64,000 bases of DNA, taken from contig JAUNIO010000004.1 of NCBI GenBank assembly GCA_030535355.1, forward strand, positions 13,513-77,512, written 5' to 3'. The stretch is from a bacterium (lineage in GTDB: Bacteria; Vulcanimicrobiota; Xenobia; Xenobiales; Xenobiaceae). Numbering within the stretch: position 1 is the stretch's first letter; each line of letters starts with the position of its first letter. A model generated the notes under the pieces. The model was given only the letters and a program-made list of their open reading frames with translations, was not told where the DNA came from and did not search any database. The translations under genes and the position numbers were made by a program. Shown here piece by piece: positions 17,720-63,922 of this stretch.

Positions 17720-19936
17720 ATGCAAATGGATAATAACTTTTATAGTCATAAATTGTTTGCTAAATTAGCCTTTTCTGCTTCGCTGTCTTTTTTGACCCTT
17801 ATGGCGTTTCCAGTCTCCGCTGAACCTTATTTCGAAGTTGATAATATGACAGCCGGATATTCCTGTAATTTCCTTGCCGAACCGCATACTCAGCTGCTGG
17901 CAGTAGGGCAGCTTCCCAGTATGCAGAGTGTCGGCAGCAAAGTATCCGGCATTAAAGTCAGCGATTCGCAGGACACCACGGCGGAAAAGCAGCTGGAACG
18001 GCTGAAGAATTTGTTGGAGCAGGGCAATACCGAAGCCCAAGTGGAGATGGGATACCGCTATTACCGCGGGCAGGGTGTGCCTAAAGATGTCGGCAAAGCC
18101 TTGGAATTGTGGAAACTGGCTGCCGACAAAGGCTCTCGTGTCGCTCAGTTCAATGTGGGCGTGCTCTACAACGAAGGCGAGCATATAGCCAAAGACAAAG
18201 CGAAAGCCGCTGAATATTTCACTAAAGCCGCCGAACAGAACCACATCGATGCTCAGCTGAACTTGGGGCTGATGTACCTGCTTGACCCCGAAGTGACCAC
18301 TGACATATCCAAGTCCGAAGGCTGGTTTTCGAAGGCTGCTGAGCGCGGTTCGGCTGTCGGTATGCTGTATATGGGGCTGCTCAGCGAAAACGAGCATAAA
18401 GATTACGCCAAGGCGGCGGATTGGTACAATAAAGCTGCCATTCAAGGCAACCGGGCCGCCAAAAACAACTTAGGCCTGCTCTATTTTCATGGGCGTGGCG
18501 TAGAAAAAGATGAAAAACGCGCCCGTCAGCTCTTTTCTGAAGCGGCTGAGGCTCATATGCCGGAGGCTCAGTACAATCTGGCCTGCATGATGTTTGAGGG
18601 CTTGGGCGGACCGGAAAATAAGCCGGAGGCCTATAAGCTTACTTTGGCTGCCGCTGAGGGTGGTTACGGCAAAGCCCAGTTTCAGGTGGGCAGCGCTTAC
18701 GATCGCGGCGCAGGCGTAGAGCAGAACGATGTCAAAGCTGTTGAATGGTATGAGAAAGCCGCTAAAAACGGCGTTTCCGAAGCCCAGTATAACCTAGGCA
18801 ATATGTATCTCTGCGGGCGCGGGGTGAAGGCCAATCCCAAAGAAGCGCTGAGATGGTTTAATAAAGCCGCTGAACAGGGCGATGTGGAAGCTATAAGCAA
18901 CATCGGGGTGATGTTTGAAAAGGGCATGGTTGTGCCCCAGGATTTCGCTCAGGCGCGCAAGCTCTATACTTTGGCGGCGGAGAATGGCAATCCTCAGGCG
19001 ATGGTCAATTTGGGCAATCTTTACTATAAAGGCGCCGGAGTCCCCAAAGATATGGCAAAAGTGGCGGAGTGGTGGTCTAAAGCCGCAGAAATGGGCCATA
19101 TAGACGCTATGTATAAAATGGGAGTGCTCTATTCCGAAGGCTTAGGAGTGGAAAAGAATGCCCAAGAAGCTTTCAAATGGTACAAAAAAGCTGCCGAGCT
19201 TGGCCATGCCTCAGCCCAATGCTATGTGGGCAGCGCTTATCTCTTAGGTGAGAATGTGCCTGCGGACCTAAACGAGGCCTTAAAGTGGCTGGAGAAATCT
19301 GCGGCCCAGCGAGACCCCAGAGCGGAGCTGCTGGCGGCGACCATTTTGCTGGAAGACAAGAAACACCAGCATGAACCGGCAAAAATCCTGAATTTGCTGC
19401 AAGACGCCGCCAGTCAGGGACTTCCTGAGGCACAGTTTAATTTGGGTCTCCTTTACGATCGCGGCCAGCTGGTAGAAGCCGATCATGCCAAAGCCTTTCA
19501 GTGCTTTTTAAAAGCGGCGGAAAGCGGCTATGCCAAAGCTCAGTACAACGTAGCTGTAAGCTATCTTAGAGGTGAGGGCGTTGCCAAAGATAACGATGTC
19601 GCTGTCAGCTGGCTGCAGAAGGCTGCCAACGGCGGAGTGTCCGACGCTCAGTTTGCGGTAGGATTGCTTTATTACGCAGGCGATGTTTTGCCTAAAGATC
19701 ATAAAGAAGCCCGCCGTTATTTTACTATGGCGGCTTTGCAGCAGGATATGCGGGCTCTGTTTAACCTAGCGCTGATGCTAGCCCGAGGCGAGGGGGGCGA
19801 AAAAGATGTCAAACAGGCCATAGCTCTTTTTGAAAAGGCAGAAGCCCAAGGCTATAAACCGGCCGCTGAGCTTTTGCAAAAGTGCCGCGAGCAGCTCAGG
19901 CAGGGCGACACTCAGAACTTGGACGCCGTCAAATAA
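17720..19936 (+). CDS. Sel1-repeat (TPR-like) secreted protein
   Basis: 738 aa. Signal peptide followed by about 18 Sel1-like repeats (A..W..KAA.QG...AQ..LG..Y..G.GV.KD). Confidence 0.8.
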   Translation: MQMDNNFYSHKLFAKLAFSASLSFLTLMAFPVSAEPYFEVDNMTAGYSCNFLAEPHTQLLAVGQLPSMQSVGSKVSGIKVSDSQDTTAEKQLERLKNLLEQGNTEAQVEMGYRYYRGQGVPKDVGKALELWKLAADKGSRVAQFNVGVLYNEGEHIAKDKAKAAEYFTKAAEQNHIDAQLNLGLMYLLDPEVTTDISKSEGWFSKAAERGSAVGMLYMGLLSENEHKDYAKAADWYNKAAIQGNRAAKNNLGLLYFHGRGVEKDEKRARQLFSEAAEAHMPEAQYNLACMMFEGLGGPENKPEAYKLTLAAAEGGYGKAQFQVGSAYDRGAGVEQNDVKAVEWYEKAAKNGVSEAQYNLGNMYLCGRGVKANPKEALRWFNKAAEQGDVEAISNIGVMFEKGMVVPQDFAQARKLYTLAAENGNPQAMVNLGNLYYKGAGVPKDMAKVAEWWSKAAEMGHIDAMYKMGVLYSEGLGVEKNAQEAFKWYKKAAELGHASAQCYVGSAYLLGENVPADLNEALKWLEKSAAQRDPRAELLAATILLEDKKHQHEPAKILNLLQDAASQGLPEAQFNLGLLYDRGQLVEADHAKAFQCFLKAAESGYAKAQYNVAVSYLRGEGVAKDNDVAVSWLQKAANGGVSDAQFAVGLLYYAGDVLPKDHKEARRYFTMAALQQDMRALFNLALMLARGEGGEKDVKQAIALFEKAEAQGYKPAAELLQKCREQLRQGDTQNLDAVK

Positions 19937-20074
19937 TTAGTTTTCGATAAAGATTCATTTTTTCCGCAAGATCTCAGTAGGATAGGATGCGGGAAATGAA
20001 AAAGACTGGCTAAGGATGGCAAAAAGCAGATTTTATGCAGGTTTTACAGGCTCGGGCCTGAGGTTTGGAGGCCG

Positions 20075-21211
20075 ATGATTATGAAAATGAAACTTAGTTT
20101 AGCGCTTTTAGGCGCAGTGGTGGGGACATTGTGGGTCCTGCCGGTTTGGGCGGAGTCCGATTTGAATTACGAGGATCAGACGCAGTCCAATTTAGTGGTT
20201 TCGCGCAGCGCGGAAAAATCCAAAAATTCTAGCTCCGCCAGTTCTGGCGAATCGAAAAAACGCAGTATCATTAGCAGCCTTCAGGCTGGCAAAGAGAAAT
20301 CTGAAGCGAAAGCCAGACGCAGCAGCCGCAATCAAAGGGATTCTGTTAGGAACAGCAGCAACACTTCAGGCCGCAGTAGCCGCAATAGCAGCGATTATGA
20401 AAGCCGCCGCGATCAGCGCTATCGCAGCAGCGATTATGACTATCAGCGGGATGGACGCTATCGCAGCGGCAATTACGGCAGCACGTATAGTTCATCGGGC
20501 AGCAATGACAGAGAACGCCGTCTAAATAGCGCTAACCTTGAATCGCAGGATGACGGCGCGGGCAACGGCGGCGGATTAATTAATCCCAACATGCACGTCG
20601 ACAATAAAGGCGAGCGCAGACAGATATTAAAGCGCAACGGCAAAGATTACCGCATCGATAGCTCGGGCAATACTGTTGAGAATAGCACCAATAACCGCAG
20701 CAGCCGCAGCACTTATTACGATGGTTACGATTCCCGCTGGGACCGCAGCCGCAGTGAGCGCGATTCTTACAGAGATAGATATTCATCGGACCGCGAGGGA
20801 AACTATAGAGATGGCGGGCGGCAGCACCGCCGTCATCACCGCCACAGTTCGGTAGATGATAATAGCCGCAGCTCCCGCGATTCTCAGCGCGAGCACCGTC
20901 ATCACCGCCACAGTTCGGTAGATGATAATAACCGCAGTGAGCGCGATTCTCAGCGCGAACACCATCGTCACCATAGCAATTTAGTTGACGATAAGCAGCA
21001 GACTTCGCGGGACAAGCAGCGCGAGGAGCACCGTTCTGTAAGAGAAAATCAATCCAAGAGCAGCTCTTCTTCCTCAGCGCGGGAGAAAAAGCCTGAGAAC
21101 CGTCCCTCTTCCTCAGCGCAGGAGAGAAAGCCTGAAGAACGTTCTGATTCTGCAGAATCCAGAGGAGAGCGGAAAGAGCGTGTTCGTCAAGAGCGTTCCC
21201 ACGAGGAATAA
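20075..21211 (+). CDS. Secreted low-complexity Arg/Ser/Asp/His-rich protein with internal tandem repeats
   Basis: Signal peptide MKLSLALLGAVVGTLWVLPVWAES. The remainder is RS/RD/RE/HRHH-rich and predicted disordered. A 69-nt tandem repeat encodes EHRHHRHSSVDDNNRSERDSQR twice. Confidence 0.5.
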   Translation: MIMKMKLSLALLGAVVGTLWVLPVWAESDLNYEDQTQSNLVVSRSAEKSKNSSSASSGESKKRSIISSLQAGKEKSEAKARRSSRNQRDSVRNSSNTSGRSSRNSSDYESRRDQRYRSSDYDYQRDGRYRSGNYGSTYSSSGSNDRERRLNSANLESQDDGAGNGGGLINPNMHVDNKGERRQILKRNGKDYRIDSSGNTVENSTNNRSSRSTYYDGYDSRWDRSRSERDSYRDRYSSDREGNYRDGGRQHRRHHRHSSVDDNSRSSRDSQREHRHHRHSSVDDNNRSERDSQREHHRHHSNLVDDKQQTSRDKQREEHRSVRENQSKSSSSSSAREKKPENRPSSSAQERKPEERSDSAESRGERKERVRQERSHEE

Positions 21212-51149: not shown

Positions 51150-52808
51150 ATGAAAACTCAGTGTAAATCTTCAACTGACAAACAACATGTTAAATGGCAT
51201 TTTAGGAATTTGCTGCTTTTAATAGGAGCAATATCCGTGCTGATCACCGGTGCTGTCTGCACTGCCTGCAGCGACGGGGGTGGATCGGCGGCAGCATACG
51301 GCGGCCAAGGCTCGCTGGTGCTGAGATTATCCCGCGAAACCGCTGCTGACAGCGCTTCTGCGGCGAGCAAAGGGTATATCAATAAGCTGGTGCTGCGCTT
51401 CTATGAAGGGCTGGAGGATCGCACGGCTGGCGCTTTGCTCTTTACCCGCAATATCGAAGTCGCTTCCGGTCAGTCCAGTGTGCAGATCGATAACGTTCCC
51501 GCCCCGCAGGATTATCTGTTTGTCGCCGATATTTACCTGAGCGATTCCACATCAGTTTACCGTTCTACGCGCTTTTGGGTCAGCACTAAAGTCGCTCAGA
51601 CTGTAAACGCTGAAGCGCTGGATTTAGACGTGGACAGCCTAGAACTTTCGCAGGATACAGCTGCTCTCACCGTCGGTGATACGGTTCAGCTCGCGCTGAC
51701 GGCGACTTATTTAGACGGCTTTAGCGAAGACGTTACCGAGTACGCTGTCTGGAGCGTTTCCGATGACGCTGTGGCCAGCATTGATGCGGGGTTAATCACC
51801 GCCTTGGGTTCTGGCTCCTGCACCGTGATAGCCGCTTACGGCGGTCAAGAAAAAGCCGCGATAATCTCCGTCTCCGGCAGCCCGGAACCCACTCCGTCTC
51901 CTTCGCCTTCGGTATCACCGTCTCCGTCTCCGTCGCCTTCACCGTCGCCTGAGCCTAAGGTGCTGAGTCATCTGGCTATAGATGTGACTTCTAAGACTAT
52001 CGGCGTAGATGAAACTGTTAACCTGAAAGTCACAGCCACCTATGAGGACGGTTCGGAAGAGGACGCCACCGAAAAAGTAACCTGGGAATCCGATGCTGAA
52101 GATATCGCTTCCGTGGACAGCAGAGGCAAGGTCACTGGGGTGAGCGCAGGCATTGCTCATATTACGGTATCTCTGGATAATGTGGTCTCCGATCCCGCGG
52201 TGATTACGGTGACTGATGGCCGAGCCGATCCCAATTTCTTTATCACCCCCGATGACACGGTCATACTGTGCGGGGGCCATCAAGCCCGTTTAGGGGCGAT
52301 ATTCCTCGACGCAAAAGGCACCAGAAACGATGTTACGCAGGAATGTGAATGGACCAGCAGCGACCCGGATTTGCTCGAGATTTCTGAAGAAATCAAAGGA
52401 GAACTGTTCAATACCAATACTCCGGGCACGGTGACCGTAACCGCTGTTTACACCGACGAGGCCGGGACGACGCATACGGCCACGGCTAAGGTGAAAATTA
52501 CCGACGCTGCTTTTAGTGGCACAATTGAACGGCCAGTAGTCTGTGACCCTGAAACCGCTACGATCAAAGTCGGGGAAGGCGTGCAGATCAATGTAATCGG
52601 CACCTTCGACGACGGCACCGAAGGCAACATCAACGCTCTGTTTACCGGAATGTGGCAGCTGAATGAAGGCGATTCGGCCTACGGGACAGTCGATGATTAC
52701 GGCTATGTCACCGGCACGGCATCGTCCGGAGAAAATTACATGACCGTCTGGTTCCACGATGAAGAGAGCGGCTACTCCGATGAGTCGCACATCACCGTGA
52801 CCGAGTAG
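51150..52808 (+). CDS. Big_2 (bacterial Ig-like) domain surface protein with Ser/Pro linker
   Basis: N-terminal anchor. Several Big_2-like modules (TVGDTVQL..TATY.DG..EDVT....W.S.D..VASID..G.ITA...G) and an (SP)n linker. Confidence 0.6.
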   Translation: MKTQCKSSTDKQHVKWHFRNLLLLIGAISVLITGAVCTACSDGGGSAAAYGGQGSLVLRLSRETAADSASAASKGYINKLVLRFYEGLEDRTAGALLFTRNIEVASGQSSVQIDNVPAPQDYLFVADIYLSDSTSVYRSTRFWVSTKVAQTVNAEALDLDVDSLELSQDTAALTVGDTVQLALTATYLDGFSEDVTEYAVWSVSDDAVASIDAGLITALGSGSCTVIAAYGGQEKAAIISVSGSPEPTPSPSPSVSPSPSPSPSPSPEPKVLSHLAIDVTSKTIGVDETVNLKVTATYEDGSEEDATEKVTWESDAEDIASVDSRGKVTGVSAGIAHITVSLDNVVSDPAVITVTDGRADPNFFITPDDTVILCGGHQARLGAIFLDAKGTRNDVTQECEWTSSDPDLLEISEEIKGELFNTNTPGTVTVTAVYTDEAGTTHTATAKVKITDAAFSGTIERPVVCDPETATIKVGEGVQINVIGTFDDGTEGNINALFTGMWQLNEGDSAYGTVDDYGYVTGTASSGENYMTVWFHDEESGYSDESHITVTE

Positions 52809-52928
52809 CTGAATTACTGGCGCTCCGTGCGAAAAATGCCGAGAATAGGTTTGCTCTTTATTCTCAGCTCTATTCTTTAGCACTTATAATTGAGCCGCCA
52901 TTAGACACTGTTGAACGGCGTTTAACAC

Positions 52929-52970
52929 AAAATCCGCTTCTTAGAACAGCATCTAGGAGGCGGATTTTAT
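52929..52970 (+). terminator. Hairpin terminator downstream of the Big_2 gene
   Basis: AAAATCCGC...GCGGATTTT (9-bp stem) followed by a T-run. Confidence 0.45.
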
Positions 52971-53010
52971 GTTAGGAGATTAGGCTAGGCAATATGTATG
53001 GGATTAGCCT

Positions 53011-53041
53011 GTTATCTATTGAATCTTATTTAATAGATAAC
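53011..53041. promoter_or_regulatory. Perfect 10-bp inverted repeat (GTTATCTATT-N11-AATAGATAAC), candidate operator of the downstream toxin-antitoxin operon
   Basis: Palindrome about 60 bp upstream of the Panacea antitoxin start, in an AT-rich promoter region. Confidence 0.4.
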
Positions 53042-53103
53042 AGTTATATAATCTATTATAATAATGCCGAGTATTACAAGTTTCGGAGAAGGAGACCATA
53101 AAA

Positions 53104-53535
53104 ATGGTAACAGTATTTGATGTTGCAAAGTATATACTAGAACAACTTGGCACGTTATCGACTATGAAACTTCAAAAACTCTGTTACTACGCTCAGGCTT
53201 GGTCGTTAGTCTGGAATGAAGAGCCTCTTTTTCCTAATGAGTTTGAAGCCTGGGTGAATGGCCCTGTATGCAGAGAACTATTTGTCGCCACCAAAGGCGA
53301 GGTATGCGTTGGGGCCAGCTATATAGAAGGAGATTCTTCGGTTTTATCTGAAGATCAAAAAAAGACAGTTAATTCTGTTTTAAAGTATTACGGCGATAAA
53401 GAAGCTAATTGGCTGAGTCAATTAACACACATGGAAGAGCCTTGGATAAAAGCACGAGAAGGTTTCCCTTCTGGTGTTAAATGTCATAATATAGTTACTA
53501 AAGAAAGTATGGCTAAGTATTATGGCAACCTCTAA
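53104..53535 (+). CDS. Panacea-domain (DUF4065, SocA/GepA-like) antitoxin
   Basis: VFDVAKYILEQ...TMKLQKLCYYAQAWSLVWNEEPLFPNEFEAWVNGPV is a close match to the Panacea/DUF4065 core. RBS GGAGAAGGAG upstream. AT-rich. Confidence 0.7.
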   Translation: MVTVFDVAKYILEQLGTLSTMKLQKLCYYAQAWSLVWNEEPLFPNEFEAWVNGPVCRELFVATKGEVCVGASYIEGDSSVLSEDQKKTVNSVLKYYGDKEANWLSQLTHMEEPWIKAREGFPSGVKCHNIVTKESMAKYYGNL

Positions 53536-53974
53536 GAAATCACGAAAAGACGATGGCCCTAATAAAAAGCACGATCCAGACAGCTATTTGTCTAAACCAC
53601 CAAGCTGGTGCTTTTTAAGCTGCGATACCGATACTAAGTGCAGATGGTCATTTTCTCAACATAGATTAAAAGAAGAATTTTGGACGCGCATATTTCTAAA
53701 GCTACAAAAGTTTGAGCAGATGACCTGGAGTGAGATTCAAATAAAGAGTAAAAAGCAAAATCATAGTAATATTGTTGAAACAATGAATAAATGCGCCAAA
53801 GATAGGCTTGATGAATTAGAAATTGAATATAATGCTTTATTTTCTCTGCGTTTAAATAGTACTGTCAGATTATATGGCTATCGTGAAGGAGCGGTATTCA
53901 ATATTTTATGGTATGATAATGATCATGGCGATAATGATACCTGCGTTGTCCGAAGCAGACTAAAACATACTTAG
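53522..53974 (+). CDS. Putative cognate toxin (PanT candidate) of the Panacea antitoxin, unknown fold
   Basis: 150-aa ORF overlapping the antitoxin gene by 14 nt. Lys-rich N-terminus. The C-terminal LRLNSTVRLYGYREGAVFNILWYDNDH resembles RelE/ParE-like beta-strand patterns only weakly. Confidence 0.35.
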   Translation: MATSKKSRKDDGPNKKHDPDSYLSKPPSWCFLSCDTDTKCRWSFSQHRLKEEFWTRIFLKLQKFEQMTWSEIQIKSKKQNHSNIVETMNKCAKDRLDELEIEYNALFSLRLNSTVRLYGYREGAVFNILWYDNDHGDNDTCVVRSRLKHT

Positions 53975-54044
53975 CTTGTTCTCATATATTGTAAAGCCTG
54001 CCGCCAGAACTATTGTTTGGCAAAGATGAGTTAAGGACTATAAT

Positions 54045-54926
54045 ATGGAATTGAGCGACCTAAAGCGAGCGTTGCTGTCACTTTTACAGACAGACGAAGA
54101 ACTGCGCAGTCTAATTAGCAGTATTTCCCGCAGCAGCGAACTTAGGGACAACGAGAAAAAGAATTCCCTGTCCGATTCCCGGGAAAATGCCGGGGCAGAC
54201 GGCCGGACGGATTATAGGCGCAGCGGGTACAATGAGGAGCTGCCAGAACCTAGAGATCGGCGCAGCATCGCTTTAGAAGCGGAAGTTAGGAGCCTGCGCG
54301 AGCAGCTGCGGCAGAAAGAGAATTCTTTGGTGAGTCTGAAAGAGGAATACCTGCGCCAAAAGCAGGAACTGGCGGATTCTGTTAGCGCCGCGCAACGCCT
54401 GCAGGTCAGCCTTGACGCGCTGCGCGGCGAAGCTGACTCTTTGCGGACCACCAACCAGCAGCAGTCTCAGGAACTGGAACGGCTGCGGCAGGAGCTGGCG
54501 CAGAGATTTCCCGAGGGATGGAAGCTGTTCCAAGCTTATCACAGCGTTTCTCAGCCGACCCGCGAGCTACTGCGCGGGGTGTTCGTGCGCGGGAACGATT
54601 TTACGTCGTTCATCTGCGGCGCGGCGCAGAGCGCTTCCCTGGAAAAGATTTGGAAGACCGTCAAGGGCTGCATCTCTCAGGGCAACACCCGGGACGCGGA
54701 TATTTTATGGGATATTTTCGCGTATGCTGTGAAGCTGGTCAATGCTTCCAAACCCGAGAAAGTTTACGAAATTCTGCAGGCGGAGCCGGGCATGCCCTTC
54801 GATTTGGAAGTGCACGCTTTGGCCCCGGGCAGCCGGGCCCAGGGCAATATCCGGGAGATCTACTTGCAGGGGTATAAAAACGTCTATGTGGGGCGCGTGG
54901 AACAAAAGAGCATCGTCAGCTTATGA
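54045..54926 (+). CDS. Divergent GrpE-like protein (coiled-coil N-terminal region plus GrpE-type C-terminal domain)
   Basis: Central heptad-rich segment. The C-terminus EPGMPFDLEVHALAPG....NIREIYLQGYKNVYVGRVEQKSIVSL parallels the GrpE signature G.PFDP..H.A......V..GY...R..R.A.V.V. Confidence 0.5.
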   Translation: MELSDLKRALLSLLQTDEELRSLISSISRSSELRDNEKKNSLSDSRENAGADGRTDYRRSGYNEELPEPRDRRSIALEAEVRSLREQLRQKENSLVSLKEEYLRQKQELADSVSAAQRLQVSLDALRGEADSLRTTNQQQSQELERLRQELAQRFPEGWKLFQAYHSVSQPTRELLRGVFVRGNDFTSFICGAAQSASLEKIWKTVKGCISQGNTRDADILWDIFAYAVKLVNASKPEKVYEILQAEPGMPFDLEVHALAPGSRAQGNIREIYLQGYKNVYVGRVEQKSIVSL

Positions 54927-55088
54927 TCATTGCGCCAAAGCGCTGCGCCGCAGTGACATATTTTGTCATTGTCAAAGATTATAATACGATATAACATAAA
55001 GCGGCCATTCTGGGCAGGTTTGGAACGGGGTGGCCGTATTTTAAATTATGCTTTTAGAGTAACAGAGCTTTTACAGGAGTGCAAACCG

Positions 55089-58000
55089 ATGTCCTTACCT
55101 ACCGATCATACCGCCCTCAAAACCGCTGTTAAGATTCCGGCTTTCCAGGTACCCGCTTTAGTCGCAAGCTGTATCGAAGCCGATATCGCCGCCCTGGCTA
55201 AAGATATTGCCGCTTTGTTTGAGGAGCTGGTTCCTATAGCCGAGCAGCGCTTCGTGATGATGCAGAATAAGGAGGTCTGGTATGATCGGGAAAACGCGGC
55301 TCTGTTTCCCAAGTTTGAAGCGTTAAAGCTGCCTACAAGCAATACGTCGTGCGACCCTGTCAAGACTTGGCCTGGCCTATCCTTTGAGGGTTTTGAATTT
55401 GTAATGATGACCAGAAATGAATTCAATACAAGTTTTCTAAATGGTTCTGGCAATCCGTACTTAAATGATGGAAATTATCAGTATTTTCCAATAGCAAGCA
55501 GCATTGTTCTAATAGCTGAAAAAAGTGGCAGCAAGACTGTATTTTGCTATGCTAACGGTAGCACTGGAGCCTGGTGTGACAGTGATCGTGTAACTATCGT
55601 TCCCATCTGCCGTCTCAACGGCAAAAACAGCTCAGCCGTGCCGCTGCTCCAGAGAATCGCGAGCTGGCTGGAGAACGACTTAATACCCCAGGGATTAAGC
55701 GCCCCGCAAATTGAAAAATACCAAGAACTATCCACAAGCTTCCAAAAGTATCTGCAGATTGAAAAATATCTACAGATTGAGAACAATGATAGCTCCATAA
55801 TATTTAAGGAAGCGGAATTTAAATCCGACGTTTTCTCCGGCTCCTTCACCCAAACCATCTTCGGCTACGACTTCGATTTGGCTGCCAAAACCGAGCGCGT
55901 CCTGCACCATGACGAAAAGCTCGCGTCCTCTGCCACCATCTCTGACTTTTTCCTCGGCTGCGATAAGCTGCGCGCCGATCTCGAACCCTACAAGGAAAAC
56001 CGCCTCACGGATCCCAATCTGGGGCACTGGGAACTGGCTGAGCCTGCTGACCAAGGGGATATCGAAATCGATCTTCCCCAGGATAAACCTTGGTACGCCC
56101 GCCCTCCCCAAATGGACGTGGCGGAAACCGGCACCTGCGCTATCGACTTCGGCACCAAAAGCACCGTGGTGGTCTGCCGCGATCGGGATGCCCGGTTGCT
56201 GCGCGTAGGCCGGGGCGACCTGTCCAAAGCTCCGACGGCGGCGGATTACGAAAATCCCACGGTCATAGAGCTGCGCGACTTAGAGGGCTTTATGCAGGCC
56301 TACCAAGCCCGAGAAGGGCGTCCGTACACAGAGTGGGAACAGCTGACCGTTTCCCATCAGGCCGCCGAGGCCATATTCCAGAACGACGACGACAGTTCCG
56401 TTTACTATTCGGTCTTCCGGGAACTCAAACAGTGGGCCAATGACAAAGACCGCCGGCTCATGCTGCGGGACCGTCAGGGTAAAGTTATCGAATTAAAGCC
56501 CTACGCAGAACTGACGGAAGGCGACTTCGATCCCATCGAGGTTTACGCTTATTATCTGGGGCTGTACATCAACAATATGCACAGACGCATTTATCTCGAC
56601 TATCTGCTGTCTTTCCCGGTCACCTATGAGAAAAAGGTACGGGAGCGCATCCGCCAGAGCTTCGAGCGCGGCCTCAGGAAGTCCCTGCCTCCGGCGATTC
56701 TGCGCGATGAAGAGATGATGGACATGTTTAGGGTGGCGGCAGGTGCCAGCGAACCGGCGGCTTATGCCATCAGCGCTTTGGAAGAGTACGGCCTGCAGCC
56801 CAAGAAAAACGGCTCTATTATCGGCAAGCCGGTGGCTTATGCGGTCTTCGACTTCGGCGGGGGCACCACGGATTTCGATTTCGGTATTGAGGAGATTCCC
56901 GCCGATGGACGGCGCAAATTCGTCATTCATCGCTTCGGGGCCGGCGGCGACGCTTATCTGGGCGGAGAAAATATTCTCGACCTCATGGCCTACGAGGTTT
57001 ATCAGGACAACCTGGAAAAAATGCGGGCGGAGGACATTCCCTTCGTTCTGCCGCCCGACTGCAAAAAGTTTGCCGGCGCGGAAACGCTCGTCAAGGAACA
57101 GGCGGAGGCTTCGCAGCAGGCCTACATGAACAGCAAGCGGCTGGCTCGGGAAATGCGCTGTATTTGGGAGCGGGAGAAGGATTACCGCGCCAAATTTGAA
57201 CAGGGCGACGTTTCGCTGATCCTGTTTTCCAATAAGCTGAAGAACGGTTCGGACAAGAGAGAAGTCAGCCTGAAGATCGACGTCGCTAAGCTGGAAAAAT
57301 GTATTAAAGAACGCATCCGCCGCGGCGTGGAGAATTTCTTTACCGCCATGATGCACGCGTTTGCGGACCGGGATGTTTTCCCCATTCATATTTTCCTGGC
57401 GGGAAACTCCTGCAAATCGGTGTTCGTGCGCCCTCTGTTCGACGAGTATATCCGGCATTACGAAAAAGAAATAGCCGCGGGAATGTCTGAAAGCAGCGCG
57501 CTGGAAAATGATTCCAGCGATATCTTTGTCCTGCATCCGCCTTTAGGGGCGGAGTGGCCCCCAGAACCCGTGCCCGAAAGAGATTATGAAGAAGAGGAGT
57601 GGCAGGAAAGCTATTGTGAACAAGATGTGCAGTGGGGCGAAATCAATTTTGAAGTCGCTGTATCTCCTGGAGCAGGGCACGGGCCGGAATATAAAGCAGA
57701 GGACAAACATCTGGCCAAGAATTTCGATCAGCTGCGCACCGGCAAAACCGGCGTAGCCTTCGGTCTGCTGCGCACCCGCATTAGCGCTCAGGATGTCAAG
57801 CTCATCGACGATGATGCCGTGAAAGGTGAGATTCCCTTCCCTTATTATCTGGGCGATATCGACCGGGAGGAGCATTTCCGCGTGCGCATCGGCCTAGAAA
57901 TCCCCTATGGACGCTGGATTCAGTTTACTTATGCCGACGAACCGGAATTCGAACTGTACTACACCAAAGAAGCCAGCTGCTTAAAAGGCGGTTACGGGCA

Positions 58001-58172
58001 GTATGACGTCGGGCGCGTGCGCTGCCGCCTGACCAGCAGCGATATACGTGAGGATGCCCATGTGTTTGTCCGCAAAGCCACGCCGTCCAGCATCGAGTAC
58101 GCCGTCGGTCTGGAAAGCGATTTTAATGCCGGAGAGTTTAAGGGCAAGGTTTATAAAAAAGAGCTGAAATAA
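55089..58172 (+). CDS. Giant Hsp70-superfamily (DnaK-like actin-fold) ATPase with roughly 350-aa N-terminal extension
   Basis: Phosphate-1 AIDFGTKSTVVV, phosphate-2 YAVFDFGGGTTDFD, and adenosine-motif IFLAGNSCKS in canonical Hsp70 NBD order. About 1028 aa from ATG 55089 (RBS CAGGAG); the ORF is open from 54963. Confidence 0.6.
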   Translation: MSLPTDHTALKTAVKIPAFQVPALVASCIEADIAALAKDIAALFEELVPIAEQRFVMMQNKEVWYDRENAALFPKFEALKLPTSNTSCDPVKTWPGLSFEGFEFVMMTRNEFNTSFLNGSGNPYLNDGNYQYFPIASSIVLIAEKSGSKTVFCYANGSTGAWCDSDRVTIVPICRLNGKNSSAVPLLQRIASWLENDLIPQGLSAPQIEKYQELSTSFQKYLQIEKYLQIENNDSSIIFKEAEFKSDVFSGSFTQTIFGYDFDLAAKTERVLHHDEKLASSATISDFFLGCDKLRADLEPYKENRLTDPNLGHWELAEPADQGDIEIDLPQDKPWYARPPQMDVAETGTCAIDFGTKSTVVVCRDRDARLLRVGRGDLSKAPTAADYENPTVIELRDLEGFMQAYQAREGRPYTEWEQLTVSHQAAEAIFQNDDDSSVYYSVFRELKQWANDKDRRLMLRDRQGKVIELKPYAELTEGDFDPIEVYAYYLGLYINNMHRRIYLDYLLSFPVTYEKKVRERIRQSFERGLRKSLPPAILRDEEMMDMFRVAAGASEPAAYAISALEEYGLQPKKNGSIIGKPVAYAVFDFGGGTTDFDFGIEEIPADGRRKFVIHRFGAGGDAYLGGENILDLMAYEVYQDNLEKMRAEDIPFVLPPDCKKFAGAETLVKEQAEASQQAYMNSKRLAREMRCIWEREKDYRAKFEQGDVSLILFSNKLKNGSDKREVSLKIDVAKLEKCIKERIRRGVENFFTAMMHAFADRDVFPIHIFLAGNSCKSVFVRPLFDEYIRHYEKEIAAGMSESSALENDSSDIFVLHPPLGAEWPPEPVPERDYEEEEWQESYCEQDVQWGEINFEVAVSPGAGHGPEYKAEDKHLAKNFDQLRTGKTGVAFGLLRTRISAQDVKLIDDDAVKGEIPFPYYLGDIDREEHFRVRIGLEIPYGRWIQFTYADEPEFELYYTKEASCLKGGYGQYDVGRVRCRLTSSDIREDAHVFVRKATPSSIEYAVGLESDFNAGEFKGKVYKKELK

Positions 58173-58402
58173 AGCGACTGTACAAACCGCTGGGCCGCAG
58201 CCTCCGTCTTCCGCAGTGCGATGCATACACGGCTGACGGCGCTTAAATAAATTACATTGGCCGAAAAACAAGGCCGAATTGACTGCTGCCTCAAAGGGAT
58301 TACAGCACTCGTTGCGAAGTGAAAGGTTTCTCATTTCAGTTTTACTAGTTACGGCGCCGCACTGCGGCCGCAGCCGATCCCCAGGCGCCGGGAGGATTTA
58401 CT

Positions 58403-60907
58403 ATGCAATACGAACCCAACAAGATCGAGCGCAAATGGAGAGCCATCTGGGAAGAGCGCAAGCTCCATCACGCCGTCAAGGACGAAACAAGGCCTAAATA
58501 TTACTGTCTGGACATGTTCCCTTATCCTTCGGGTGAGGGGTTGCACGTCGGCCACTGGCGCGGCTATGTGCTTTCCGACGTTTGGTCGCGCTACATGACG
58601 CTGTTAGGCTATAACGTATTGCACCCCATGGGCTGGGACGCCTTCGGCCTGCCCGCGGAAAACGCGGCCATTAAAAAGGGCGTGCATCCCGAAACCCAGA
58701 CCAAAGCCGCCGTTTCCAACATGAAACGCCAGCTGACCGATATGGGGTCTATGTACGACTGGGAGCGCGAAGTCAATTCCTCCACCCCCGAGTATTACCG
58801 CTGGACCCAGTGGGTCTTCCTCAAAGCTTACGAGCTGGGTTTGGCTTACAAGAAGGGCGCTCCCATCAACTGGTGCCCCGGCTGCCGTTGCGGCCTGGCC
58901 GATGAAGAGGTTAAGGAAGGCCGCTGCGACCGCTGCGGCTCCGAAGTTACCAAAAAGAACCTCAACCAGTGGTTCTTCGGCATCAGCAAATACGCCCAGC
59001 GCCTGATCGATGACATTAAACCTTTGGACTGGCCGGAAAAAGTCAAAAAGATGCAGATCGACTGGATCGGCCGCAGTGAAGGCGCGGAAGTCTGCTTCCA
59101 GCTTGAAGGCCTAGAGGATAAGCTGTGGATTTACACCACCCGTCCCGACACTCTCTTCGGCGCTACCTATATGGTCATGGCCCCCGAGCATCCCTTGGTG
59201 GACAAGATCACGACAGATGAACAGCGCGAAGCCGTGGAAGCCTATCGCACCCGCACCAGCACCCGCAGCGAGGTGGAGCGCCAGGAACAGCGCGAGAAGA
59301 CCGGCGTCTTCACGGGCGGCTACGCCATCAACCCGGTCAACGGCAAGCGCACCCCGATTTGGATCTCCGACTACGTGCTCATGGGCTACGGCACCGGAGC
59401 TATCATGGCCGTGCCTTCCCACGACACCCGCGACTGGGATTTTGCTAAAGCCTTCGATATTCCCATTATCCAGGTGGTGCTGACCCCCGAGCAGGAAAAA
59501 GAATTGGCTGGCTGTAAGGGTGCCGAAGAACTCAATAAAGCTTATGCGGAAAAATATCCCCAGATGCCCCTGACCGAAGCTTACTGCGAAGTGGGCACGA
59601 TGATAAATTCCGGCGAATTCTCCGGCCTGAAATCCGATGTTGGCCGCAAGCGCATCGTGGAGTCCCTGGAAGCCAAAGGCCTGGGTCGCACCAAGATCAA
59701 CTACCGCCTGCGCGACTGGCTAGTTTCCCGCCAGCGCTACTGGGGTGCTCCCATTCCCATGGTTTATTGCGACGACTGCGGCATTGTGCCCGTTCCCGAA
59801 GAACAGCTGCCCGTGCTGCTGCCTCACGTGGATAAATATGAACCCTCTGGCACCGGGGAATCGCCGCTGGCGGCCATCGATGAGTTTGTCAACACCACCT
59901 GCCCTAAGTGCGGCAAACCGGCGCGCCGCGACACCGATACCATTTCCCAGTGGATCTGCTCTTCCTGGTATTTCCTGCGCTATTCGTCTTACGACTGCCA
60001 GGATCAGGCCTGGCGCAAGGAAGACGTCGATTATTGGAACCCCGTAGATATGTACGTGGGCGGCATCGAGCACGCCGTGCTGCATCTGCTCTATTCGCGC
60101 TTCTGCACTAAGATGTTCTACGATCTGGGCCTGGTGAAGTTCACCGAACCCTTCCAGCGCCTCTTCAACCAGGGCATGATCTGCAAAGTCGGCCATTCCG
60201 GCCGCCTGGAGAAGATGAGCAAATCCAAGGGCAACGTGGTCAATCCCGACGAGCTGGTAGAAAAATACGGCACCGACTCCCTGCGCGCCTACGAGCTGTT
60301 CATCGGCCCTCCGGAACTGGACGCCGAGTGGAACGACAGCGGCATCGACGGCGTCTATCGCTGGATTAAACGCGTCTGGAATTTCGCTCAGGAAACCGAA
60401 TTTGCCAAAGATAAAGAGAGCGACATTGAAGTGTTGCGCCTCTCGCACCGCTTTATCAAAAAGATCAACGATGACTTGCAGCGCCTGCACCTGAATACGG
60501 TAGTGGCCGCGCTGATGGAATGGATGAACGGTTTATATACTCTGCGCTCGCAGGGCAAAACCATCTCCGAAGAGACGCTGCGCCAGTATATCGTCATCGC
60601 TTCTCCCATTATTCCGCACACCGCCGAAGAGATGTGGCACAATTTGGGCGAAGAAAAATCCCTCTTTGAAGGTAAGCCGGCCTGGCCTACCCATAAAGAG
60701 GAATACACCGTGGAGAACACCTTTAAACTGGCCGTGCAGGTCAACGGCAAAGTGCGCGCCACTTTGGAGATTCCTATGGGCACGGAACAGGCCGCTATTG
60801 AAGAGCTGGCCCGAGCCAATGAGCGCGTAGCTGCCCAGCTGGAAGGCAAGACCGTGCGCCGGGTAATCTATGTGCCCAACAAGCTGCTCAACATCGTCGT
60901 AGGTTAA
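58403..60907 (+). CDS. leuS: Leucine--tRNA ligase
   Basis: HVGHWRGY (HIGH class) motif, KMSKS, and the CP1 editing domain. 834 aa. Confidence 0.95.
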   Translation: MQYEPNKIERKWRAIWEERKLHHAVKDETRPKYYCLDMFPYPSGEGLHVGHWRGYVLSDVWSRYMTLLGYNVLHPMGWDAFGLPAENAAIKKGVHPETQTKAAVSNMKRQLTDMGSMYDWEREVNSSTPEYYRWTQWVFLKAYELGLAYKKGAPINWCPGCRCGLADEEVKEGRCDRCGSEVTKKNLNQWFFGISKYAQRLIDDIKPLDWPEKVKKMQIDWIGRSEGAEVCFQLEGLEDKLWIYTTRPDTLFGATYMVMAPEHPLVDKITTDEQREAVEAYRTRTSTRSEVERQEQREKTGVFTGGYAINPVNGKRTPIWISDYVLMGYGTGAIMAVPSHDTRDWDFAKAFDIPIIQVVLTPEQEKELAGCKGAEELNKAYAEKYPQMPLTEAYCEVGTMINSGEFSGLKSDVGRKRIVESLEAKGLGRTKINYRLRDWLVSRQRYWGAPIPMVYCDDCGIVPVPEEQLPVLLPHVDKYEPSGTGESPLAAIDEFVNTTCPKCGKPARRDTDTISQWICSSWYFLRYSSYDCQDQAWRKEDVDYWNPVDMYVGGIEHAVLHLLYSRFCTKMFYDLGLVKFTEPFQRLFNQGMICKVGHSGRLEKMSKSKGNVVNPDELVEKYGTDSLRAYELFIGPPELDAEWNDSGIDGVYRWIKRVWNFAQETEFAKDKESDIEVLRLSHRFIKKINDDLQRLHLNTVVAALMEWMNGLYTLRSQGKTISEETLRQYIVIASPIIPHTAEEMWHNLGEEKSLFEGKPAWPTHKEEYTVENTFKLAVQVNGKVRATLEIPMGTEQAAIEELARANERVAAQLEGKTVRRVIYVPNKLLNIVVG

Positions 60908-62579: not shown

Positions 62580-63077
62580 ATGAATAAATTTTTCACTCTG
62601 GCCGTAGCGTCAGCGCTTCTGCTCTCTTTGAACGCCTGCACTGAGAATACGCAGGACCAGGAACCCACGACGCTTGAGCAGGCCTTGCCAGCTGCTGCTC
62701 CTGCCGAGCCCGCCAGTTCCTCGGGGGCCAGCGGTTCCGCGTCCGAATATGAAAAGGCTCACGCCCAAGGCCAGCTGACAGCCTGCAAGAGCAACTTAAA
62801 AAATATAGGCACAGCCTTGGAAATGTGGCAGTCCGATCATGATGGTAAATTGCCGGAAAAGCTCTCCGAAGTAACCACGGGTGGCCCATACGGGGGATAT
62901 TTAAAGGTTATTCCTTCTTGCCCGGCAGCTAGAGGAGACAGCTATTCCAGCTCCTATAAACGCTCTGCCGACGGCAAAAACTACGAAGTTTACTGCAGCG
63001 GGCATAACCATGCCTTACTGGGCATTCCTAAAAATAGGCCTGGCTTTACCTCTGAGATGGGGCTTATAGAGAAGTAA
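62580..63077 (+). CDS. Lipoprotein with pseudopilin/type IV pilin-like (GspG-like) domain
   Basis: Lipobox LSLNAC. Downstream AQGQLTACKSNLKNIGTALEMW...GGYLKVIPSCPAA matches the conserved post-helix region of pseudopilins (..A....C.SNLK.IG.A...Y). Confidence 0.5.
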   Translation: MNKFFTLAVASALLLSLNACTENTQDQEPTTLEQALPAAAPAEPASSSGASGSASEYEKAHAQGQLTACKSNLKNIGTALEMWQSDHDGKLPEKLSEVTTGGPYGGYLKVIPSCPAARGDSYSSSYKRSADGKNYEVYCSGHNHALLGIPKNRPGFTSEMGLIEK

Positions 63078-63095: not shown

Positions 63096-63320
63096 TAATA
63101 TCATTTAGTTAGCGATCAGCTAACTTGCGAAACTATCTAACTCCCCCTAAAGGATGGGAGGGGGAGAAGTCGCGAATGCGACAGAGGGGTGCCCACGACT
63201 GTTGGGGAATCGAGGTTTAGCTTGTGTTATGCTCTAGCTTATACGCAGGCATGAACGTGGCGATAATTGTATATGAGTCAACATTTCCAATGTCATCGAG
63301 TCTTAACTAAATGACATTGA
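63096..63320. repeat. MITE-like repetitive element, copy 2 (reverse-complement of 14686-14925)
   Basis: Near-identical (a few mismatches) to copy 1 in inverted orientation. Ends with the hairpin caatgtcat..ttaactaaatgacattg. Confidence 0.7.
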
Positions 63321-63922
63321 CTAATAGGGAAGGGGCGCATATGTCAGCAAAAAATCAAATTCCTCAGGAAAATGTCAAAGCCGGAACTACAGGAATTATA
63401 GTTGGTCTCTTGATGGGGTGGATTATGCCGCCCATTACCTGGATAGCAGCGTTTTTTCTGTATAAAAGCTTTCTCAAAGATGGCAATCTCAGCGACGCCA
63501 AAGGTATAAAAATAGGGGCGCTGATCACTGGAGGCCTGTGCTGTGTTGTCGGTTTGCTTGTCATTCCCTTGCTGGCCGCTATACTCGTGCCGAATTTTGT
63601 CAGAGCCAAAGCTCAAGGCCAGCTGACAGCCTGCAAAAGCAATCTGAAAAATATAGGCACAGCCTGTGAGATGTATTCCACCGATCATTACGGCCGTTAT
63701 CCCAAAAAGCTTTCGGAACTGTGCGAAGGGCCCAATGGTGGCTATCTCAAAACAATCCCTACCTGTCCGGCAGCCGGAACTGACAATTATGTTTATACCA
63801 TGCATGCTGATCCCGATATATTTACGATCTATTGCCGTGGCGAAAACCATACGGTTCTCGATATTCCTAAAGATAAACCGGCCTTTAGCTCTATCTATGG
63901 CCTGATAGAGCAGAATGATTAG
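63311..63922 (+). CDS. Membrane protein with pseudopilin/type IV pilin-like domain (paralog of 62580-63077)
   Basis: Two N-terminal hydrophobic segments (..LLAAILVPNFVRAKAQGQLTACKSNLKNIGTACEMY..GGYLKTIPTCPAAG). The C-terminal 110 aa are colinear with the lipoprotein paralog. No canonical G-FTLIE prepilin cleavage motif. Confidence 0.5.
   Translation: MTLTNREGAHMSAKNQIPQENVKAGTTGIIVGLLMGWIMPPITWIAAFFLYKSFLKDGNLSDAKGIKIGALITGGLCCVVGLLVIPLLAAILVPNFVRAKAQGQLTACKSNLKNIGTACEMYSTDHYGRYPKKLSELCEGPNGGYLKTIPTCPAAGTDNYVYTMHADPDIFTIYCRGENHTVLDIPKDKPAFSSIYGLIEQND

Follow-up and report, generated by a model that had tools for sequence, protein, structure and literature searches.

The ATPase of an Hsp70 chaperone is usually triggered by a J-domain protein, and the beta domain of GrpE (residues 144-192) is the part that contacts the nucleotide-binding domain (NBD) of Hsp70. 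Specialised Hsp70s such as HscC/YegD and HscA, which are 450-620 residues long, are recognised by the Pfam HSP70 family and are not known to possess an N-terminal extension or a dedicated GrpE-like gene. Divergent relatives have also been predicted in bacterial conflict systems. The CnuD units of the coiled-coil-rich CoCoNuT/NxD-McrB systems were predicted to contain a divergent Hsp70-like NBD and substrate-binding domain (SBD), their motifs being described as degenerate, and some of these operons also have HerA/FtsK-type ATPases (PMC11090510). A second group, the GTPase-centred conflict systems of Firmicutes and Actinobacteria, includes HSP70, GrpE and DnaJ-fused proteins and is defined by GAP1-N2/DO-type GTPases, FNIII-repeat proteins and sometimes tubulin (Kaur et al. 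2020, PMC7159879). Here we analyse the gene of an atypical Hsp70-like protein of 1027 residues (55089-58172) and its upstream GrpE-like partner gene, located in a stretch of 64,000 nucleotides (contig JAUNIO010000004.1 of assembly GCA_030535355.1, positions 13,513 to 77,512; hereafter the window) from a metagenome-assembled bacterium in which NCBI annotates both genes as hypothetical. Hsp70 and GrpE are well understood, and yet the whole family to which this pair belongs has been missed by every curated model.

According to our analysis the core of the protein is unambiguously an NBD of the Hsp70 type, active-looking as far as its sequence and predicted structure can tell, and not a generic actin-fold ATPase. 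The AlphaFold2 (AF2) model, built from an alignment of the query and 53 homologues (A1), has a mean predicted local distance difference test score (pLDDT) of 85.8 and a predicted template modelling score of 0.76 over the full length. When it was compared with the Protein Data Bank (PDB) by Foldseek, the top 50 matches were all Hsp70s (DnaK, Hsc70, BiP, Ssb, mortalin; E 1e-16 to 5e-13), with template modelling scores, normalised to the target, of 0.56-0.63 for NBD-only chains. Alignment A1 was matched by hhalign to Escherichia coli DnaK with 92.8% probability (E 3.9e-7) and to a three-sequence Hsp70 profile with 97.1% (E 4.8e-11), DnaK residue 2 falling on query residue 347. Even single sequences carry a trace of this relation, since DnaK finds the gene in the window by tblastn (E 5e-5) and a search of PDB sequences with the protein finds DnaK only around the phosphate-2 motif (E 7e-4); overall identity to DnaK is about 13%.

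The phosphate-1 (residues 351-359), phosphate-2 (587-597) and adenosine (768-777) motifs, and between the first two the segment ASEPAAYA (553-560), align to DnaK residues 6-14, 193-201, 337-346 and 169-176, respectively. All residues of ATP binding and hydrolysis, that is the motif positions given in Table 1 and E555-P556 of the EP motif, are invariant in 121 of 121 sequences (the query and 120 homologues), while the position matching DnaK K70 is occupied by R, K or Q. The protein also possesses the Hsp70-specific elements EP(A/T)AA and GD-x-LGGE. Taken together, the Foldseek and hhalign matches and the invariant motifs establish an Hsp70-type NBD inside a protein of about a thousand residues, as the original prediction had it from the raw sequence, and in the Foldseek comparison that it had called for the closest folds are DnaK, Hsc70 and BiP. 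The motif order, from residue 351 onwards, stands, with a spacing wider than in DnaK. Phosphate-1 and phosphate-2 are separated by 236 residues against 187 in DnaK, and phosphate-2 and the adenosine motif by 181 against 144, the extra 49 and 37 residues being due to an expansion of two lobes.

Phosphate-1, phosphate-2 and adenosine motifs are common to the whole superfamily of acetate and sugar kinases, Hsp70 and actin (ASKHA), and together with the lack of a Pfam HSP70 match this could be taken to mean that the protein is no chaperone at all, being an actin-like filament former (ParM/MreB-like) or another ASKHA enzyme such as a sugar kinase or a Ppx/GppA-type protein. We find this barely credible. 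The 50 best structural matches are Hsp70s without exception, the sequence matches are specifically to DnaK and HscA, and the elements named above, the C-terminal beta domain and the GrpE-like neighbour are all features of Hsp70 systems. An actin/ParM-like filament protein and a sugar kinase were accordingly rejected as identities, fold and sequence matches being all to Hsp70. A canonical HscC/YegD was rejected as well for want of full-length similarity. The NCBIfam models of HscA and DnaK match only below threshold and only over residues 554-644 (12-17 bits against cut-offs of 600-800, E 0.002-0.07), and no Pfam or NCBIfam model reaches beyond that segment, so that the protein is, as expected, not a member of a well-characterised family from end to end. 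Among defence models, PADLOC returned for it a single 15.5-bit match to PDC-M29A (E 0.002) and nothing for the homologue from locus L003; the PHROGs scan of the protein gave nothing above noise.

What follows the adenosine motif had been thought not to resemble the Hsp70 substrate-binding part over its roughly 250 residues, and our data divide this region in two, with about 70 of these residues still falling to the NBD or to an insert specific to the window. According to the conservation profile and the AF2 model, the chain first runs through a long helix at 780-802, then through a short strand at 813-816, and these are followed by an acidic, disordered insert specific to the window (pLDDT below 50; gapped in 57-76% of the homologues), by the invariant helix TGKTGVAFGLL and by a linker-like strand of the DVK-hydrophobic type (DVKLI). 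We infer that TGKTGVAFGLL is the last NBD helix, corresponding to DnaK NPDEAVAIGAAVQ, because the succession of helix, strand, helix and hydrophobic strand is that of Hsp70 (...FFGKEPRKDV / NPDEAVAIGAAVQ / VLLLDV); hhalign itself placed this segment unreliably. Residues from about 800 to 897 would thus complete the NBD. The remaining 125 residues or so are modelled by AF2 as nine beta strands with no long helix. Foldseek aligns the model over about 720 columns to full-length Hsp70s against about 455 to NBD-only targets, and the root-mean-square deviation is 9-12 A to docked, ATP-state structures (DnaK 4B9Q and 5NRO, BiP-ATP 5E84 and 6ASY, AMPylated BiP) as compared with 23-30 A to undocked ADP or apo structures (2KHO, 2V7Y, 5OBU, 4ANI). 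Because of the longer alignment to full-length Hsp70s and the closer fit to the docked states, we consider it probable that the C-terminal domain is SBD-beta-like and placed as in ATP-bound Hsp70, as the model suggests. A helical lid (SBD-alpha) and a C-terminal tail are both missing, the protein ending at residue 1027 right after the beta domain. Of the novel flanking domains originally proposed, then, the N-terminal one remains and the C-terminal one dissolves into the probable end of the NBD and a lidless domain that is probably SBD-beta-like.

The partner encoded directly upstream consists of a short N-terminal helix motif, a coiled coil of about 80 residues (about 75-155) and a C-terminal globular domain (151-293). 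Coiled-coil families match its residues from about 75 to 165, and the coiled coil is kept, with variable length, across 28 homologues. The window protein itself yields only coiled-coil families in Pfam and only coiled-coil noise in PADLOC, and a full-length profile of the family against the PDB was uninformative, with only coiled-coil proteins such as myosin and SMC among its matches. The information is in the C-terminal 143 residues, which are well conserved among the 28 homologues and end in the consensus GDxFDxDxHxxxxxSxxQGxISxVxLxGYxNxYNxKIIxKSIVxV; the beta domain of GrpE itself has the pattern G-x-FDP-x-x-H ... G-Y ... R-x-x-x-V. When the members were scanned one by one, GrpE was the only Pfam family matched by more than one of them (5/28, best E 0.018, all sub-threshold). 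The family alignment (A4) was placed by hhalign on E. coli GrpE in the expected position (E 0.004) and on a three-sequence GrpE profile with 86% probability (E 4.8e-6), where residues 247-293 fall on GrpE 144-192. This profile was used instead of a larger one, as a database search with E. coli GrpE gave only sequences at least 88% identical; the E. coli query sequence was confirmed by 99%-identical database entries. Of 40 full-length loci that could be assessed, at least 33 have a GrpE-like homologue as the gene immediately preceding the Hsp70-like one. Because the match to the beta domain comes together with a long coiled coil and with gene adjacency, we suggest with moderate confidence that the partner would act as a dedicated GrpE-like exchange factor; the earlier description of the upstream protein as GrpE-like thus finds moderate support in its C-terminal domain.

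Several results weigh against this assignment of the two proteins. Pfam recognises no family in the Hsp70-like protein at E<=0.1, and none of the 28 partner homologues matches Pfam GrpE above threshold. Two of the three sequences in the GrpE profile were entered by hand, although a BLAST comparison with E. coli GrpE validated both (1e-34 and 9e-21). The C-terminal domain alone, aligned by hhalign as A2 to the DnaK SBD, stays insignificant (E 0.3-0.8), the best of these alignments keeping the expected register with PYYLGD on PLSLGIE and FTYADE on FSTAED, and neither its profile nor the C-terminal domain of the partner finds a match among PDB sequences. Finally, a tblastn search with the J-domain of E. 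coli DnaJ, whose sensitivity is limited, covered the window and about 85 related loci and found no J-domain at E<=10, so the DnaJ-like partner for which the original prediction suggested looking did not turn up within that limit. Having set these points against the fold, the motifs and the partner, we regard it as highly probable that the pair is, at the molecular level, a machine of the Hsp70/GrpE type.

The 345 residues in front of the NBD are of another kind, and here the expectation of a novel flanking region holds: they have no detectable relative by sequence or by fold. They form a beta-hairpin, a helix of 34 residues, a beta-rich subdomain (residues about 55-175) that is Cys/Asn-rich and partly specific to the window, and helical elements leading into the NBD. 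The module is modelled with a pLDDT of 86 both alone and within the full-length model. A profile of 40 N-terminal homologues found nothing credible in Pfam or among PDB sequences. The isolated module has its best Foldseek match in the PDB at an insignificant E of 0.42; against viral models (BFVD) the best E is 0.012, while C-type-lectin, DUF1566 and DUF6273 folds recur at an insignificant E of 0.1-2. The beta-rich subdomain could, going by the model, be a lectin-like binding module, which we treat as a lead only. A weak match to the OTU1 thioesterase (E 0.019) was rejected because the position of the catalytic His is not conserved. In a HMMER search of 1.84 billion representative proteins the module was present in only 360, and every full-length carrier is a protein of about 950-1250 residues with the module ahead of the Hsp70-like core.

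With respect to the gene itself, the open reading frame (ORF) listing opens the frame at a TTG (54963-58172, + strand), and the ATG at 55089 is the likely start, being preferred because a Shine-Dalgarno-like AGGAG precedes it and because the homologues start at the same Met; the closest of them, P0001 (76% identical), also begins with MSLPTDHT. The start at 55089 originally assumed is therefore supported. The gene is real and under purifying selection: compared with the closest homologue, the ratio of nonsynonymous to synonymous substitution rates (dN/dS) is about 0.26 for the whole gene. It is lowest in the NBD (0.12), somewhat higher in the C-terminal domain (0.18) and highest in the N-terminal module (0.33), which is less conserved and faster evolving than the remainder.

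Table 1. Features of the Hsp70-like/GrpE-like locus, in window coordinates
Feature	Position	Strand	Details
SocA/Panacea antitoxin	53104-53535	+	Pfam 8e-18
Putative toxin, 150 residues	53522-53974	+	PADLOC NsnC C-terminus 7.6e-8; NCBIfam MAG6450 5.5e-7; PHROG 8366 1.4e-9
GrpE-like partner gene	54045..54926	+	293 residues; annotated 'hypothetical protein', MDO5295363.1
GrpE-like C-terminal beta domain	54783..54923	+	residues 247-293; PFDLEVHA...QGNIREIYLQGYKN..GRVEQKSIVSL
Shine-Dalgarno-like AGGAG	55075..55079	+	9 nt before ATG 55089, read from the sequence
Atypical Hsp70-like protein gene	55089..58172	+	1027 residues
Family-specific N-terminal module	55089..56123	+	residues 1-345
In-frame tandem duplication KYLQIE-KYLQIE	55746..55781	+	2 x 18 nt, 15/18 nt identical
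Hsp70-type NBD, expanded lobes	56124..57779	+	residues ~346-897; Foldseek, hhalign, tblastn
Phosphate-1 motif AIDFGTKST	56139..56165	+	residues 351-359; D353, G355, T356, K357 invariant
Antisense ORF, 347 residues	56493..57536	-	probable non-coding shadow of the sense frame
Phosphate-2 motif FDFGGGTTDFD	56847..56879	+	residues 587-597; D588, GGGT 590-593, D595 invariant
Adenosine motif IFLAGNSCKS	57390..57419	+	residues 768-777; G772, N773, S774 invariant
Window-specific acidic disordered insert	57570..57716	+	residues 828-876, within the NBD end
Invariant helix TGKTGVAFGLL	57738..57770	+	residues 884-894; T884-G888 and G892 invariant in 121 sequences
C-terminal ~125-residue beta domain, SBD-beta-like (from the model), lidless	57780..58169	+	residues 898-1027

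A search of the databases returned more than 2000 homologues (clusters at 90% identity), none of them with a name or a Pfam domain, members being annotated only as hypothetical; 358 loci came up when one genome was scanned for each of 185,579 species. The family was seen in Selenomonadaceae, Veillonella, Megasphaera, Phascolarctobacterium, Peribacillus, Ureibacillus, Neobacillus, Clostridia, Heliorestis and Natroniella. In the related loci, where genes were taken from crude ORF calls, a GrpE-like gene followed by the Hsp70-like gene forms the constant pair (75 loci), the latter being sometimes duplicated. Next after the pair, 22 of the 57 loci that could be assessed, or about 40%, encode a HerA/DUF87 ATPase of about 1000-1150 residues (PADLOC mad8 2e-21, HerA 1e-17) that has no predicted membrane segment, and the full module continues with a protein of about 230-340 residues with a Gly/Ser-rich hydrophobic N-terminus, which we call c3, and with two small proteins. 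Selenomonadaceae, Veillonella, Megasphaera, Bacillaceae and Clostridia all have this gene set. The pair thus recurs in Bacillota; outside them it is carried by two plasmids from other phyla, one from Acinetobacter (see below) and one from Helicobacter, where the set has as neighbours an HNH endonuclease, an SMI1/KNR4 immunity-type protein and an FtsK/SpoIIIE protein. No match to c3 was found in Pfam, PADLOC, PHROG or the PDB; in locus L003 (14165-15034, about 290 residues) its N-terminal 85 residues or so are Gly/Ser/Ala-rich, hydrophobic and glycine-zipper-like, and its C-terminal part is helical.

Some of the loci deserve a description of their own. On the mobilizable plasmid pYH12207-1 of the gammaproteobacterium Acinetobacter piscicola (locus L084, 1-12444) the HerA-like ATPase, a c3-like protein, the GrpE-like protein and two Hsp70-like paralogues are followed by a HEPN-domain protein, a fragment of the dynamin family, an integrase, an IS982 element and HipA toxin-antitoxin genes. 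In three Selenomonadaceae loci (L019, L020 and L025, about 18200-20970) a dynamin-like protein of 855 residues (Pfam Dynamin_N; PADLOC LeoA/LeoBC) stands after the full module and shares a segment with the dynamin fragment of the Acinetobacter plasmid. Members from oral Selenomonas and Centipeda (L026-L048), about 889 residues long, are devoid of the first 190 or so residues of the N-terminal module and of the GrpE-like neighbour; their position is conserved as well, with a Crp-type regulator and a membrane protein of 233 residues preceding them and a ComFB-like gene following. In Ureibacillus xyleni (L056, 3418-9147) three genes are found just upstream of the pair, the first encoding a canonical-type Hsp70 fused to VWA (699 residues; Pfam HSP70 3e-102, VWA 9e-21) and the other two a protein of 1084 residues without a family and a DUF4280 (PAAR-like) protein; these may represent a second chaperone-based system.

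The window contains the minimal, two-gene form, with no trace of the HerA-type ATPase, the membrane protein or the small proteins. One may ask whether it is then a non-functional remnant from which these components have been lost, and there are facts that would agree with it: the closest relatives with a known context (58-62% identity) are all of the full form, located beside a NERD helicase, insertion sequence (IS) elements or a WYL regulator; the two genes of the pair are separated by an unusual gap with a terminator-like hairpin; and the protein has insertions specific to the window as well as an internal duplication. Against these stands the intact ORF with every family-invariant residue kept and with dN/dS well below 1 in all three regions, from which it follows that the gene is held by selection even without the HerA part, and two-gene forms without the ATPase recur in other lineages, for example in seven Peribacillus-like genomes. 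We consider a remnant very improbable. The gap just mentioned (54927-55088) measures 162 nt, compared with only 10-20 nt in homologous loci, and holds the hairpin at 54941-54955 and weak promoter-like hexamers.

A HerA/DUF87 motor of this size next to a protein with a hydrophobic, glycine-rich N-terminus could also be read as an apparatus for secretion, toxin delivery or DNA translocation, in which transport would be the task of the motor and the membrane protein, with the Hsp70-like protein as chaperone of the substrate, the window copy being an orphaned chaperone pair. The neighbours on the Helicobacter plasmid and, in Ureibacillus, the PAAR-like protein and the Hsp70-VWA fusion would fit; these associations are, however, single cases. 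Moreover, the absence of a membrane segment in the HerA-like protein, the fact that no WXG100/LXG-type substrates were seen, and the fact that the two-gene forms without the ATPase are common and conserved all speak against transport, which makes this reading quite improbable.

We propose that the pair works as an atypical, cytoplasmic machine of the Hsp70 type, in which ATP binding and hydrolysis in the NBD would control a lidless, SBD-beta-like clamp via the short linker, and the GrpE-like coiled-coil protein would open the nucleotide cleft and reset the cycle through exchange. The N-terminal module, which is the fastest-evolving and family-specific part, would most plausibly select the target. 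The pair is the constant core of a widespread and horizontally spread module, which in its full form also includes a hexameric ATPase of the HerA type, a small, glycine-rich membrane protein and two further small proteins, and the Hsp70 clamp may then serve as the sensing or remodelling part in a conflict with phages or other mobile DNA. We advance this last point, the most likely biological role, as a tentative suggestion with somewhat less than an even chance; it is made because of the patchy spread across phyla, the variable gene content, the paralogues, the HerA-type ATPase and membrane protein, and the toxin-antitoxin (TA), IS, integrase and defence neighbours. The neighbour census, which is a raw listing of 148 distinct families with housekeeping and defence types mixed, includes among the latter LeoA/LeoBC-like dynamins, a DRT-type reverse transcriptase-helicase, GajB-like helicases, Nhi, AbiO, mad2/mad8, nSTAND3 and WYL.

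There are facts that count against a role in conflict, and most of them would suit the same Hsp70-like/GrpE-like machine working as a housekeeping or assembly chaperone for one client. The family is chromosomal and sometimes syntenic, was found in no phage genome and is nearly absent from plasmids; the oral Selenomonas gene keeps its site between the Crp-type regulator and ComFB genes; housekeeping genes make up many of the neighbours, leuS being the one that flanks the window copy, whose GC content matches that of the surroundings; and the gene is under purifying selection. The window form has no recognisable effector, and none of the system models of PADLOC-DB v2 matches the Hsp70-like or the GrpE-like protein. 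A housekeeping function is, on the other hand, opposed by a distribution as patchy as 358 loci in 185,579 species genomes, by the presence of the module in phyla far apart and on plasmids where integrase, IS and TA genes are its neighbours, by its varying gene content and duplicated paralogues, by the associated HerA-type ATPase, dynamin-like and HEPN genes, and by the fast evolution of the N-terminal module, so that we hold a pure housekeeping role to be unlikely. The best overall explanation, an Hsp70/GrpE-type machine that in addition takes part in conflict, has in our estimate about as much chance of being right as of being wrong. Going one step further, the pair might be the core of a so far undescribed chaperone-based immune system, in which the clamp with its N-terminal recognition part would sense or capture an invader protein, the GrpE-like protein would drive the cycle, and the full form would either pass the captured protein to the HerA motor and a glycine-zipper membrane effector or activate them; this extension is possible but doubtful.

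Two further claims made about this locus concern the DNA of the gene. An in-frame tandem duplication of 18 nt encoding KYLQIE twice does exist, and Tandem Repeats Finder reports it at 55744-55780 (period 18, 2.1 copies, 89% matches). It is not perfect, as had been stated: the units, in codon register AAG TAT CTG CAG ATT GAA and AAA TAT CTA CAG ATT GAG, differ at three third positions, all synonymous, and encode the same peptide. The duplication is real and lineage-specific and no assembly artefact, because it is missing from all 120 homologues, the closest included, and is found in two independent assemblies of the same organism; the helix of the N-terminal module that contains it is poorly conserved. 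That the two copies have diverged at synonymous positions speaks against the recent slippage event to which the repeat had been attributed. On the opposite strand, the antisense ORF of 347 residues is indeed present and is probably spurious, in agreement with the original view, because long antisense open frames are common in the family (median 173 residues, maximum 770) and the apparent conservation of its product simply reflects the sense gene. For the same reason we rejected the possibility that this strand carries a true gene.

As to the immediate surroundings, a probable Panacea-type toxin-antitoxin pair, judged by profile matches, lies directly upstream of the GrpE-like/Hsp70-like pair (53104-53974); its genes overlap by 14 nt and lie in the stretch of lowest GC content in the window (0.439). 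The leuS gene follows 230 nt downstream of the Hsp70-like gene, and an Rfam search of 52500-58600 was negative for RNA elements, a T-box before leuS included. In front of the GrpE-like gene a sigma-70 promoter match of 11/12 positions (54017-54044, +; TTGGCA-16-TATAAT) ends 1 nt before the ATG, which implies either a leaderless transcript or a chance match. Farther away, two paralogous ORFs (62580-63077 and 63311-63922, both +) share AQGQLTACKSNLKNIGTA.EM and a C-terminal GLIE(K/Q) ending and look like pseudopilin-type proteins.

The family unites an apparently active Hsp70 ATPase, as suggested by motifs and model, with a lidless clamp, a private exchange factor and a module of 345 residues that has no known relative, and, being small and soluble, it is amenable to direct testing. 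If the pair runs an Hsp70 cycle without a J-protein, it would put to the test how much of the Hsp70 mechanism can be dispensed with and how far it can be turned to new targets. Should the wider module be a conflict system, bacterial immunity would gain a sensing principle based on a chaperone, and the immune reading sketched above, if true, would make it the first defence system built on the Hsp70 cycle. Taken as a whole, the module may turn out to be a system of a new kind, while the protein itself varies the known Hsp70/GrpE machine.

How far this variation goes can be seen from a comparison with the systems from which we started. With DnaK and GrpE the pair shares the NBD fold, all nucleotide-binding motifs, the domain order of NBD, short linker and beta domain, a beta domain that the model places as in ATP-bound DnaK, and a partner with a long coiled coil and, probably, a GrpE-like beta domain. 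It differs from DnaK by an identity of only about 13%, the absence of Pfam or NCBIfam membership, the N-terminal module, the lobes expanded by 49 and 37 residues, the missing helical lid and the lack of a J-protein found nearby, and from the canonical pair by a partner that Pfam GrpE does not recognise, and by a variable, mobile module in place of an hrcA-grpE-dnaK-dnaJ operon. Like HscC/YegD and HscA, which are specialised Hsp70 paralogues with divergent substrate-binding parts, it has weak NCBIfam matches to HscA and DnaK; unlike them, it is matched only over the short segment of residues 554-644 (E 0.002-0.07), and its N-terminal module has no counterpart there.

Among defence systems, those based on HerA (Sir2-HerA, DUF4297-HerA and MADS with mad8) resemble the full module in its ATPase, which matches the mad8 and HerA models. 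They differ in that Sir2, DUF4297, NurA or other mad genes do not occur in the module and that the window has no ATPase. Full-text searches of the literature brought up neither a HerA system with an Hsp70-like protein nor any account of this family or of a module combining Hsp70, GrpE and HerA. The CnuD systems are similar in having a highly divergent Hsp70-like unit in a coiled-coil-rich setting and, in some operons, an ATPase of the HerA/FtsK type; the motifs are, however, invariant here, which sets our protein apart from CnuD as it was described (PMC11090510). The markers of CoCoNuT systems, namely an NxD-type McrB GTPase, McrC/DUF2357, HEPN and HEAT-like repeats, were found neither in the window nor in the 75 loci surveyed. 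GTPase-centred systems, finally, have a GAP1-N2/DO GTPase, FNIII or tubulin proteins, none of which is a constant neighbour here, dynamin-like GTPases occurring in a few loci. They do share with our locus the pairing of an Hsp70 with a GrpE, and so provide a precedent for the recruitment of such a pair into a predicted conflict system (PMC7159879).

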